From Candidatus Gottesmanbacteria bacterium (lineage in GTDB: Bacteria; Patescibacteriota; Microgenomatia; UBA10105; UBA927): DNA of 32,025 bases. The position numbers and the translations under genes are program-made. The stretch is from the NCBI GenBank assembly GCA_963790805.1, contig CAWBPL010000001.1, forward strand, positions 1 through 32,025, read 5' to 3'. Below are positions 11,680 through 28,083 of this stretch, one piece after another (within the stretch, counting starts at the first letter, position 1; every line of letters starts with the position of its first letter). The notes under the pieces are model-generated. The model was not told the origin of the DNA. It saw nothing but the letters and a program-made list of their open reading frames with translations, and searched no databases.

Positions 11680-12246
11680 CTATTTAATCGTGTACGTCGG
11701 GTGGGGGATGGGGCCGAGTTCATTGATTGGCCAGTAGCGGAATACAGCCGTACCGATAAAGGCAGCTTCCTGAACCGGTCCGAATTCGCGTGAATCAGAA
11801 CTGTGAGCGCGGTTATCTCCCATCATAAAGTATGAATCCTGCGGAACAACGATTGATTGCCCTTCGGCAAGATATGTCCCGCCAAAAATCGGGGTATTGG
11901 GTGCAAGGTACGGCTCGTTCACTTTCTGGCCATTTACGTACATGGCGTTATCCTGCACACTCACGGTGTCTCCCGGCAGTCCGATAATGCGTTTAATATA
12001 ATCGATGTTCGGATCAGGTGGAGATTTGAAAATAACCACATCACCCCGTGCGGGCACGCGGAATTTATACATAATTTTATTGGTAAGAATAAATTCGCCG
12101 TTGTGAAAGTTTGGTTCCATGGATTCGCCGTTTATCTCCTGCGGGGACATGATGAACAGGTAGACCATGACAAGGAGCGCAAGCACAACAACAATACCCT
12201 GTAAAAAATCAAAAAACGCGGCTACCGCCCGCTTAATTCCACCCAT
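11680..12246 (-). CDS. lepB: Signal peptidase I
   Basis: N-terminal TM helix, GESMEPN (Ser), YIKRIIGLPGD (Lys) and GDNRAHSSDSREFG. Confidence 0.96.
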   Translation of the reverse strand: MGGIKRAVAAFFDFLQGIVVVLALLVMVYLFIMSPQEINGESMEPNFHNGEFILTNKIMYKFRVPARGDVVIFKSPPDPNIDYIKRIIGLPGDTVSVQDNAMYVNGQKVNEPYLAPNTPIFGGTYLAEGQSIVVPQDSYFMMGDNRAHSSDSREFGPVQEAAFIGTAVFRYWPINELGPIPHPTYTIK

Positions 12247-12286
12247 ATATCCAGTCTACGTGATATAATAAAGATCGTCAATACGG

Positions 12287-12359
12287 GGGCGGTTCTCGCC
12301 GTGTAGCTTCGCACACAGGCGAGCCCGACAGTCGTGCAGAGCTCGACGTCGGGAGCTCA
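12287..12359 (+). repeat. Duplicated tRNA-Val 5' end (GGGCGGTT|AGCTCA) split by two tandem GC-rich hairpins
   Basis: GGGCGGTT at 12287-12294, hairpin CTCGCC..GGCGAG at 12295-12323, hairpin CCCGAC..GTCGGG at 12324-12353, then AGCTCA at 12354-12359. The rejoined 14-mer equals 12609-12622. Confidence 0.8.
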
Positions 12360-12369
12360 TGGCGTCAAA

Positions 12370-12618
12370 ATGTTTTATTATACGTACGTGTTAAAAAGTA
12401 TTAAGGACGGACGTTTGTATATTGGCTCGTCGTCAAATTTAAAACAAAGATTTAAACAACATAATTCTGGTGATGTGGAAGCAACTAAAAATCGAAGGCC
12501 ATTGGAATTAATATATTATGAAGCATGTTTAACAAAGGAATTGGCTTTCAAAAGAGAGTTGTATTTTAAAACTGGTTTTGGAAGAGCATTTTTAAAAACA
12601 AGAATTTCGGGCGGTTAG
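12370..12618 (+). CDS. Stand-alone GIY-YIG nuclease (SLX1/UPF0213-like, 82 aa)
   Basis: YTYVLKS...LYIGSSSNLKQRFKQHNSG...TKNRRPLELIYYEA...AFKRELYFK. The stop codon lies inside the tRNA-Val 5' end. Confidence 0.92.
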   Translation: MFYYTYVLKSIKDGRLYIGSSSNLKQRFKQHNSGDVEATKNRRPLELIYYEACLTKELAFKRELYFKTGFGRAFLKTRISGG

Positions 12619-12681
12619 CTCAGCTGGTAGAGCGTTTCATTGACATTGAAAAGGTCATAGGTCCAAATCCTATACCGCCCA
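12609..12681 (+). tRNA. tRNA-Val(GAC)
   Basis: Acceptor GGGCGGT/ACCGCCC, anticodon arm TTTCA-TTGACAT-TGAAA, T arm ATAGG-TCCAAAT-CCTAT. CCA is not encoded. Confidence 0.93.
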
Positions 12682-12684
12682 CAA

Positions 12685-26885: not shown

Positions 26886-26956
26886 GCCTCCTTAGCTCAA
26901 CGGCAGAGCAGCGGTATCGTAAACCGTAGATGTCAGTCCAATTCTGACAGGAGGCT
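26886..26956 (+). tRNA. tRNA-Thr(CGT)
   Basis: Acceptor GCCTCCT/AGGAGGC, anticodon arm GCGGT-ATCGTAA-ACCGT, T arm GTCAG-TCCAATT-CTGAC. Confidence 0.85.
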
Positions 26957-27303
26957 CAGATTTTTGCAAATCCATTAAAGTGAATTTTTCCGTCTGTTTT
27001 ATTATAAACCTCGATCACAAGATATTTACCCTTTGTCCATGGTTGACCGTGAACCAAAATATGAGTTGCTTCAAGAATCCGGATACTCGCTACCGGTTTA
27101 CTTAATTTCTGGTTCCCTTTGGTAATGAGTAAAGGGATTTCTCCCTCGAGCCAGTAATTCCGTTGGCCTTTTTTAGCGAAGGCGTACGAGCCGCCGGCTA
27201 CAAGCTTTTGCGGTATGCATTCTTCGATAGCCCTATTTCCTTTTTTGAATTCAGAAAATGCTCGAAGTGCTAAATCCGGATTGTATTCTGTAACTATACC
27301 CAT
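26956..27303 (-). CDS. Conserved-looking hypothetical protein (115 aa)
   Basis: Intact ORF just downstream of tRNA-Gly, with globular composition. No family could be assigned with confidence. Confidence 0.7.
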   Translation of the reverse strand: MGIVTEYNPDLALRAFSEFKKGNRAIEECIPQKLVAGGSYAFAKKGQRNYWLEGEIPLLITKGNQKLSKPVASIRILEATHILVHGQPWTKGKYLVIEVYNKTDGKIHFNGFAKI

Positions 27304-27314
27304 AATTTTACCTG

Positions 27315-27385
27315 AGCGGGTAAAGGGAATCGAACCCTCTTCCTCTCCTTGGGAAGGAGATATACTACCAGTGTACTATACCCGC
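27315..27385 (-). tRNA. tRNA-Gly(CCC)
   Basis: Reverse complement GCGGGTA...TCTCC-TTCCCAA-GGAGA...GAGGG-TTCGATT-CCCTT-TACCCGC-T. Confidence 0.93.
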
Positions 27386-27436
27386 GATACGTGCAAGCCG
27401 TATGGCTTACTCATAATTGTATACAATTATTCTTCG

Positions 27437-27972
27437 TTACGGCATTGTCAGGACGTTTCCTGCAAAAATGACGTCCGGATTTGTAAGATTATTTGCTTTT
27501 GCAATATCTACCCAGCGATATCCGTCGTCTGTATTCGTTTACCGCGATGGTCCACAGATTATCGCCATGCACAACTGTATAGGATTTTTTCGTATCTTTC
27601 GGTTTCGTCGTGCCGGCGTGAGCTGAGCGATGGAATAGTAAGTGTTTGCCCGACATCAATGCTGTCGGGATTCGCAAGTGCGTTTGCTTTAGCAATATCT
27701 ACCCAGTTATATCCGCTTTTGTACTGATTCTCGGCAATGGACCAGAGTGTATCACCGGACTTTAACCACGTATTTGGCCGGAAGTGCGGTGCCTGCGGTT
27801 ATCGATGCGGCGGTCCCTGTCTGTTCCTGTTTGGCGTACTCGTCGCTACCTGCGTTTTCGATTTAACGTAATTGACGACCGTCATGCCGATGACAAGAAC
27901 CACGGCAAGACCGAGCGCGAGCGATACTAAAGAATCTGTCGAATCAAACTTTGCTTGTAATGTTTTCCACAT
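27437..27972 (-). CDS. Membrane-anchored protein with two LysM domains (frameshifted)
   Basis: N-terminal TM (LALGLAVVLVIGM), then GDTLWSIAENQYKSGYNWVDIAKAN...VGQTLTIP and YTVVHGDNLWTIA...WVDIAKANNLTNPDVIFAGNVLTMP. Confidence 0.85.
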
Positions 27973-28005
27973 AGTTCCTCCATTCCAGGCAGAAGTTGTT
28001 GGCAG

Positions 28006-28083
28006 TGGCGGGACCGACCGGGTTCGGACCGGCGACCTTCTCCTTGACAGGGAGACGCTCTAACCAGGCTGAGCTACGATCCC
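28006..28083 (-). tRNA. tRNA-Asp(GTC)
   Basis: Reverse complement GGGATCG...TCTCC-CTGTCAA-GGAGA...GCCGG-TCCGAAC-CCGGT-CGGTCCC-G-CCA. Confidence 0.93.

Follow-up and report, generated by a model that had tools for sequence, protein, structure and literature searches.

In the 32,025-nucleotide (nt) stretch of Candidatus Gottesmanbacteria DNA analyzed here (GenBank assembly GCA_963790805.1, contig CAWBPL010000001.1, positions 1 to 32,025; "the window" means this whole stretch), a gene for a small GIY-YIG nuclease lies between lepB and the gene for tRNA-Val(GAC), behind a partial copy of the 5' end of that tRNA which is split by two hairpins. The genome concerned (G000) comprises 1.25 Mb in 2 contigs, and this is the only tRNA-Val(GAC) gene found in it. 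The cassette and its surroundings consist of the following features:

12261 to 12269, plus strand: putative extended -10 element TGATATAAT of the tRNA-Val promoter, as read from the sequence
12270 to 12286, plus strand: tRNA leader, kept ahead of the remnant, with the motif CGTCAA common to short-spacer alleles
12287 to 12294, plus strand: remnant R1, GGGCGGTT, a copy of tRNA-Val bases 1 to 8 and an exact 8-nt repeat of 12609 to 12616
12295 to 12323, strand not applicable: hairpin 1 (29 nt) of a two-hairpin palindromic module
12324 to 12353, strand not applicable: hairpin 2 (30 nt) of the same module
12354 to 12359, plus strand: AGCTCA, corresponding to tRNA bases 9 to 14 (continuation X)
12370 to 12618, plus strand: gene for an 82-amino-acid (aa) minimal GIY-YIG nuclease, predicted to be of the Slx1/UPF0213 type (ATG at 12370, TAG at 12616 to 12618)
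12609 to 12682, plus strand: intact tRNA-Val(GAC) (ARAGORN; Rfam tRNA, 70.6 bits)
11680 to 12246, minus strand: lepB (signal peptidase I), the divergent neighbor (Pfam Peptidase_S26, E 5.6e-53)

As the tRNA starts at 12609, the open reading frame (ORF) of the nuclease runs 10 bases into it, and its TAG stop consists of tRNA bases 8 to 10. A sequence-only reading of this DNA had already named the extended -10 element, the 8 nt, the 29- and 30-nt hairpins, AGCTCA, the ORF and the tRNA, and each of them lies where that reading had placed it. Its description of a very small cassette, devoid of integrase and transposase and set between the tRNA promoter and the intact tRNA, agrees with the ORF listing and with Pfam: the whole cassette measures 322 bp, its sole ORF is the GIY-YIG gene, no integrase or transposase domain was detected in it, and no inverted repeats bounding it were found.

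R1 stands right behind the conserved promoter and leader, at the position where the tRNA starts in related genomes with a short lepB/tRNA-Val spacer, and TGATATAAT-type motifs also precede tRNA-Val in most of these short-spacer loci (by eye). Between 12269 and the nuclease ATG no further promoter-like site was found on the plus strand, and the extended -10 element probably also drives the nuclease gene. By itself, the 8-nt repeat is weak evidence within the window, the 501 bases around the locus containing three exact 8-mer direct repeats, which is about the chance level; its significance derives from its position at the tRNA start and from its recurrence at other loci. Folded as DNA, the 83 nt from 12287 to 12369 reach -23.9 kcal/mol (z -3.4), and none of 200 shuffled sequences folds as well. 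In hairpin 2, a compensatory stem change from A-T to C-G is seen in the related genome G021 (by eye). A terminator-like match at 12345 to 12366, which extends over the start codon and has no genuine run of Ts, was dismissed as a terminator. An out-of-frame upstream ORF of about 11 codons (12359 to 12394, ATG at 12359, GGGAG ahead of it) overlaps the nuclease start and might couple translation or mean nothing.

The nuclease

The 82-aa protein scores 65.2 bits with the Pfam GIY-YIG profile (PF01541; cut-off 22.6; E 6.6e-18), and the residues Y6, Y17, G19, R27, H31, and E63, which we take to be catalytic by I-TevI numbering, are invariant in 26 diverse homologs. In the AlphaFold2 model (pLDDT 94) the entire chain forms one domain. 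Searching the PDB with phmmer gives 1zg2 (E 1e-4) and 1ywl (E 8e-4), and Foldseek ranks 1 to 13 are all occupied by UPF0213, Slx1, or HIGLE proteins, 1zg2 and the Slx1 entries 7cq2 and 6seh reaching TM scores of 0.6-0.7, while I-TevI is a weak match (E 0.14). By its sequence and predicted fold, the protein is thus a minimal Slx1/UPF0213-type GIY-YIG nuclease. NCBIfam returns sub-threshold hits only (TIGR01453, 21.8 bits against a cut-off of 56), and PHROGs assigns the protein to a generic 'homing endonuclease' family (E 3e-6). The separate DNA-binding module that characterizes homing endonucleases was not found. As there is a catalytic domain only, the cassette might work like a homing element without its enzyme being classed as a typical homing endonuclease.

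In each of the 14 homolog pairs compared, nonsynonymous substitutions lag far behind synonymous ones, with dN/dS of 0.06-0.22 in the nine pairs for which dS can be estimated and saturated synonymous sites in the other five. Judged from these substitution patterns, the nuclease gene is under purifying selection.

Related cassettes at tRNA genes

In the family to which the genome belongs, lepB adjoins tRNA-Val at all 30 loci. A GIY-YIG gene separates the two in six of them (G000, G001, G021, G019, G024, and G008), whereas in 19 the spacer has just 42-84 nt (promoter, leader, tRNA) and lacks the hairpins. Among the remaining five loci, with spacers of 115-280 nt, three contain an ORF-less tRNA remnant (L043, L057, and L061) and two (L037 and L055) are repeat-rich with no clear remnant, all judged by eye. 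One short-spacer locus (L034) has half of a palindrome in the leader and, downstream, a 3' remnant of a resident tRNA, so that 18 short spacers look clean. One conserved site is therefore filled in some genomes and cassette-free in others, as for a homing endonuclease. Cassette-free (short-spacer) alleles, implied by the earlier description of an inserted cassette, do exist, even in a congener: G002, of the same genus as G000 and G001, has a spacer of 68 nt, and its promoter and leader are nearly identical to those of G001, in which the leader continues into tRNA bases 1 to 13, two hairpins, the ORF, and the tRNA. An exact 20-mer across leader and remnant matched no metagenome contig.

A close set of 114 ORFs at 111 loci was assembled from 61 related genomes (32 loci from searches plus 80 listed places, one of them without a hit). 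Homologs occur in 56 of these genomes, with 1-14 matches per genome (150 matches listed and 167 further), and five genomes have no match. Nearby tRNAs lie on the strand of the ORF in 109 cases and on the opposite strand in one. The ORF ends at most 30 nt from a tRNA start in 32 of the 114 and at most 200 nt away in six more; in 36 a tRNA is found solely upstream, within 250 nt. When the tRNA 5' end was searched for upstream of the ORF or between ORF and tRNA, at least 7 nt of it were repeated in 19/38 cases, as opposed to 2.8% of 1396 mismatched tRNA/locus pairs used as controls, and at least 10 nt in 14/38, as opposed to 0.14%. Whether 5'-end duplications with hairpins recur at other GIY-YIG/tRNA loci, the check proposed in the sequence-only reading, is answered in the affirmative by these numbers and by a wider scan with one genome per species, which gives at least 593 relatives of the window clade. 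According to record titles, the best 80 of these are nearly all Patescibacteria of many classes, with six from other phyla. A co-oriented tRNA starts at most 30 nt from the stop codon in 43 of the 80 and at most 200 nt in 15 more, none is on the opposite strand, and at least 7 nt of the tRNA 5' end are repeated in 36/58. None of the six loci from outside the candidate phyla radiation (CPR) has an adjacent tRNA.

A single ORF clade can occur at several tRNAs (Val, His, Lys, Gln, and Asn; 62-74% identity), and clades at Ser and Met are each tied to one tRNA type (70-96% identity). At L010 (G047:C31), a cassette with remnant and palindrome precedes a tRNA that carries a group I intron. One clade (L022, L023, and L024, with L067, L071, L074, L078, L082, L084, L091, and L104) is not located at tRNAs; in L022, L023, and L024 the ORF is bracketed by the arms of an inverted repeat (about 18 nt), one about 10 nt before the ATG and the other over the stop codon, and ordinary genes lie around it. 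Members of another clade (L088, L095, L097, L098, L109, L110, L113, L115, L137, and others; 70-89% identity) always lie 65-150 nt downstream of tRNA-Ser, and their complex multi-stem spacer begins directly at the tRNA-Ser 3' end.

G000 itself has three small GIY-YIG genes. At tRNA-Ser(GGA) the order is a promoter-like TATAAT, tRNA bases 1 to 13, GC hairpins, tRNA bases 14 to 20, ATG, ORF, and a TAG formed by tRNA bases 13 to 15. As this nuclease is only 38% identical to that of the window, the locus is an independent instance of the layout. The third gene lies 25 nt downstream of tRNA-Lys(CTT). Six more tRNAs of G000 are immediately preceded by a partial repeat of their own 5' end that is not accompanied by an ORF. 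Four of these ORF-less layouts, in the order promoter, hairpin-split partial tRNA 5' copy, short spacer, intact tRNA, precede the following genes:

C2:886958-887030: tRNA-Cys, copy interrupted by hairpins
C2:1107515-1107601: tRNA-Leu(TAA), copy interrupted by hairpins, promoter duplicated as well
C2:1173834-1173906: tRNA-Lys(TTT), copy interrupted by hairpins
C2:377222-377309: tRNA-Ser(TGA), remnant of another Ser allele, reaching the anticodon loop

The anatomy was quantified in 54 cassettes with a remnant of the same allele. The first part of the remnant has 7-21 nt (median 13), the foreign insert in it a median of 40 nt (interquartile range, IQR, 36-47), the tRNA sequence resumes after the insert in 44/54 (median 7 nt, IQR 5-9), and a spacer (median 7.5 nt) precedes the start codon. 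Bases before tRNA position +1 are often duplicated too; the duplicated target is variable in length, with 12-36 nt plus 0-35 nt of leader. The transposase, terminal inverted repeats, and fixed-length target duplication of DNA transposons are all missing from this layout. The stop codon lies inside the tRNA in 15/32 close-set and 3/43 wide-set cassettes, where it is provided by the conserved T8-A9-G10 or by a TAG further on; the other stops are found 0-21 nt ahead of the tRNA. By this geometry RNase P cleavage at +1 would part the ORF from its stop codon, as the sequence-only reading had pointed out for the window, and likewise in those 15 close-set cassettes. That reading had also tied the split of the remnant to the stop codon site (T^AG), which does not generalize: split points span tRNA positions 6 to 21 with no general tie to the stop codon, and at the lepB locus of G001 and G021 the remnant is split after base 13. 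The hairpin module of G000 matches that of G001 in 52/60 alignment columns as the reverse complement and in 37/56 in the same sense. This reverse-complement match, together with the split after base 13 in G001 and G021, suggests that the 8+6 split of the window is probably due to a secondary inversion that took AGCTC along, and AGCTCA may alternatively represent the inverted AGCTC of a 13-nt remnant like that of G001.

Palindromes and tRNA alleles

Each ORF clade carries its own type of stem-loop. In the window clade it is mostly one palindrome family, with arms CCCGCCCGC...GCGGGCGGG, which has been kept across distant CPR lineages; an identical 36-nt copy is present in L008 and L014, whose proteins are 65% identical. 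Modules have about 36-60 nt and occur in both orientations (21:14, one ambiguous, by alignment scoring). In the cassettes of the lepB locus, module identity is still 87%, although the ORF has reached saturation at synonymous sites (pS 0.84). Over all clades, the 80 nt before the start codon fold with a median z of -2.2, and 53% are below -2 as opposed to 2% inside ORFs; in cassettes the palindrome lies 5-24 nt upstream of the ORF start. An Rfam search of 10 cassette loci at E values up to 0.1 gave tRNAs, the group I intron of L010, and one sub-threshold plastid hit, and no ribozyme or RNA family at the hairpins.

The idea that the hairpins of G000 are a dispersed repeat of their own genome was ruled out, as the modules are single-copy there. 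Each related genome has 0-1 strict copies of the common palindrome family, and five other CPR genomes have 0-3 each. Distant CPR genomes share nearly identical copies of 47 nt, and an exact 20-mer arm is present in at least 120 metagenome stretches. The palindrome is thus a conserved DNA element that is independent of orientation and also exists outside nuclease cassettes. At D-loop sites, the junction is GG^TAGAGC in one orientation (L157, L158, L165, and L166; GG^TTAGAGC in L162) and GGTA^GAGC in the other (L167, L177, L190, L201, L202, L207, and L213; GGTA^GAAC in L155), the two being offset by 2 nt around a self-complementary TA. A general coupling of orientation to this 2-nt shift was considered and dropped: it holds at D-loop sites but fails at site 7|8, where the junction is the same in both orientations. 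A study on SegB (PMC2330249) describes 2-nt 3' ends as the product of GIY-YIG homing enzymes of this kind.

Some metagenome palindromes have particular surroundings. In L224 and L244 the palindrome apparently lies within a protein-coding region, the flanks looking by eye like one enzyme gene, and the 48-nt copy would be inserted without a frameshift in one of the reading frames. Solo palindromes in L241, L258, L261, L263, L265, and L225 have the same short tandem-like motif on both sides (11 nt each in L265), which may be a target duplication or an insertion into a simple repeat.

In L053, L054, L057, L043, and L061, the acceptor stem of the remnant differs from that of the downstream functional tRNA. 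Beyond the new tRNA, 3' halves of the resident tRNA-Val follow, themselves interrupted by palindromes, and such resident tRNA pseudogenes carry palindromes in the D, anticodon, and T loops. The new tRNA with a short leader lies between two palindrome arms in L069, L057, and L034; mirror forms with 3' remnants exist in L135, L099, L121, and L123, and two copies of remnant plus palindrome flank the ORF in L149, L164, L168, and L173. Where G021 differs from G000/G001 in the acceptor stem of the tRNA, the remnant shows the corresponding change. Since remnant and downstream tRNA represent different alleles, the sequences at several loci indicate replacement of the tRNA. This replacement and the palindromes away from tRNAs go beyond what the sequence-only reading contained.

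Interpretation and comparison with known systems

With a probability of roughly 0.65, the window locus would be one copy of a large family of selfish, tRNA-gene-targeting nuclease cassettes of Patescibacteria that use the tRNA promoter. In this scenario the nuclease would break tRNA genes, or branched or hairpin DNA forming there, and host repair would then copy the cassette into the break. The surviving outcomes would be those that leave or bring a whole tRNA, and survival under this restriction would explain the rule of a 5' remnant followed by an intact tRNA. The cassette would be transcribed from the tRNA promoter within the tRNA precursor, and RNase P cleavage would part the ORF from the tRNA, in the window also from its stop codon, and thereby limit expression. 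The palindrome might serve as the cis element of the nuclease, acting at the DNA level as substrate or recognition structure, or in the mRNA as a stabilizing 5' stem. More tentatively, these cassettes could form a new class of mobile DNA, in which an Slx1-like, structure-specific GIY-YIG nuclease and a flip-flopping palindrome invade tRNA genes by breaks at folded or branched DNA, each event regenerating or importing a whole tRNA, so that tRNA alleles would turn over horizontally. Local tRNA arms beside the palindrome might aim the nuclease, in which case the target would be defined by nucleic acid instead of being read by protein.

Several points weigh against a selfish cassette family. Its nuclease lacks a DNA-binding domain by which it could recognize targets. 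Purifying selection over saturated synonymous distances would also fit a gene useful to the host, and the cassettes at the lepB locus are about as divergent (68-74% at the aa level) as lepB itself (67-70%), which would fit long vertical residence with losses equally well as homing. For 40 of the 114 close-set ORFs ARAGORN finds no nearby tRNA, although at least three of these are misses of the program (L009, located at the end of a contig; L028, whose T arm is unusual; and L010, whose anticodon loop holds a group I intron matching Rfam RF00028 at 87.8 bits). Palindrome and nuclease are not exclusively linked, since 55 of 80 fetched metagenome palindrome loci have neither a GIY-YIG gene nor a tRNA within 450 nt. 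Finally, palindrome and ORF are each flanked by local tRNA sequence, with a median of 7 nt between them, and no single known insertion mechanism yields such an arrangement.

Some of these points would suit a domesticated host gene that maintains, amplifies, or replaces tRNA genes or acts on tRNA precursors, with the remnants as by-products. Besides strong purifying selection, it would account for the near-universal presence in the class (56/61 genomes), the strict co-orientation and apparent co-transcription with tRNAs, and the stable clades on one tRNA type (Ser, Met; 70-96% identity). Precedents are known in that SegB-driven amplification of tRNA genes defeats a tRNA-cleaving defense, as described in one article (PMC13096335), and that the fusion of an Slx1-like GIY-YIG domain to a TrmH-type tRNA methyltransferase, mentioned in sections of a superfamily survey, hints at RNA metabolism (PMC1564403). 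However, the gene is patchy at the orthologous site (6/30, a congener having a spacer of at most 84 nt), its copy number varies from 0 to 14 per genome with five genomes lacking any match, all six clade members from outside the CPR do not adjoin tRNAs, and the resident tRNAs are disrupted and replaced, which resembles damage rather than service; a host function therefore seems rather unlikely to us. Still less probable is that the palindrome is the mobile entity, akin to REP or MITE sequences, that cells hit in an essential tRNA gene survive only by restoring a whole tRNA through partial duplication or allele import, and that the GIY-YIG protein is its mobilizer or cleaver, or just a frequent passenger. 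This would explain the ORF-less loci in which remnant and palindrome precede an intact tRNA (Cys, Leu(TAA), Lys(TTT), and Ser(TGA) of G000; L057, L043, L061, and L347), the resident pseudogenes riddled with palindromes in D, anticodon, and T loops, the new tRNAs between two palindrome arms (L069, L057, and L034), the solo palindromes outside tRNA contexts, and the near-identical 47-nt copies in distant CPR genomes. It is at odds with only 0-3 strict copies per genome, with the single-copy modules of G000, with the constrained distance of 5-24 nt to the ORF start, and with the own stem-loop type of every ORF clade, which argues for a partnership in cis rather than chance co-occurrence.

An integrase-type island or a group I intron in a tRNA that left the cassette behind as its scar is hardly credible, even though tRNA genes are classic integration sites and a group I intron is present in one neighboring tRNA (L010). 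The 322-bp cassette has no integrase, the repeat corresponds to the 5' end of the tRNA and not to its 3' end, and apart from the anticodon-loop intron of L010 Rfam detects no intron or ribozyme in 10 cassette loci; in L001, E values up to 0.1 return tRNAs only. A chance repeat with ordinary tRNA-leader hairpins beside an unrelated small gene would be compatible with the 8-nt repeat, which alone is within expectation for 500 bases that hold three exact 8-mers, but this explanation is refuted: the tRNA-specific duplication recurs in 19/38 and 36/58 cases as opposed to 2.8% of controls, and alleles of the same locus with spacers of at most 84 nt lack the hairpins. The short-spacer alleles and the recurring duplications thus leave no room for the chance match that the sequence-only reading had named as its own alternative.

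The nearest described systems differ from the cassette in several respects. SegB of phages is a larger protein with a DNA-binding region, whereas the window protein has 82 aa and a catalytic domain only. SegB of phages T4 and T6 is a free-standing GIY-YIG homing endonuclease encoded in a tRNA gene cluster which, according to passages of two studies, cleaves within tRNA genes and promotes inheritance or amplification of the adjacent tRNA region (PMC2330249; PMC13096335). The location of a GIY-YIG gene among tRNA genes is thus shared, but the window protein is predicted to belong to the Slx1/UPF0213 branch (Foldseek E 0.14 for I-TevI), and, unlike SegB as described in these passages, its cassette lies inside a cellular tRNA transcription unit and carries a 5' remnant and a palindrome. 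Slx1 is a cutter of branched DNA by the titles of PDB entries 6seh and 7cq4. Like prokaryotic Slx1-like proteins, as presented in sections of the 2006 survey of the GIY-YIG superfamily (PMC1564403), the window nuclease is a stand-alone, minimal domain; as far as those sections describe Slx1 and UPF0213 proteins, these have no link to tRNA genes, partial gene duplications, or mobility, unlike the window family. The bacterial UPF0213 entries matched here carry no assigned function.

Other comparisons concern the palindrome and the target. REP/RAYT and IS200/IS605 systems combine short imperfect palindromes, also as solo copies, with a small nuclease gene and have neither classical terminal inverted repeats nor an integrase. 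The cassette similarly pairs a conserved imperfect palindrome, also found solo, with a small nuclease gene, but its sole domain is GIY-YIG instead of an HUH/Y1 transposase, its palindrome has only 0-3 strict copies per genome, and its target is a tRNA gene that becomes partially duplicated. From integrase-mediated tRNA islands it differs by lacking an integrase and by repeating the 5' end of the tRNA. In the same radiation and likewise in structural RNA genes, GIY-YIG-encoding insertions that reportedly do not resemble group I or II introns occur in CPR rRNA genes, where they were judged sparse and probably not spread by homing; the article on them makes no mention of tRNA (PMC11270868). Full-text literature searches turned up no published account of the CPR in which small GIY-YIG genes go together with palindromes or with duplicated tRNA 5' ends, subscription journals and supplements being outside this search.

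A selfish origin would imply a widespread kind of element for the CPR, with at least 593 relatives and, in 56 genomes, 1-14 matches per genome of about 1 Mb, and would give a concrete role to enigmatic bacterial UPF0213/Slx1-like proteins. It would account for partial tRNA copies, leader palindromes, and tRNA genes missed by gene finders in the CPR, and it suggests that horizontal replacement of tRNA alleles is possible. A nuclease of 82 aa able to find tRNA genes with no DNA-binding domain, perhaps by way of DNA structure, would also be relevant to the fields of homing endonucleases and genome engineering.

Elsewhere in the window, tRNA genes for Thr, Gly, and Asp are located at 26886 to 28083 with no GIY-YIG gene nearby, and the only prefix match of tRNA-Thr(CGT) is 7 nt long, lies 288 nt upstream, and does not exceed chance. 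The 3' acceptor strand of tRNA-Val, TACCGCCC (12673 to 12680), recurs at 12223 to 12230 inside the start of lepB and is complementary to the remnant region at 12282 to 12293, an 8-mer match of a scale that is expected by chance.

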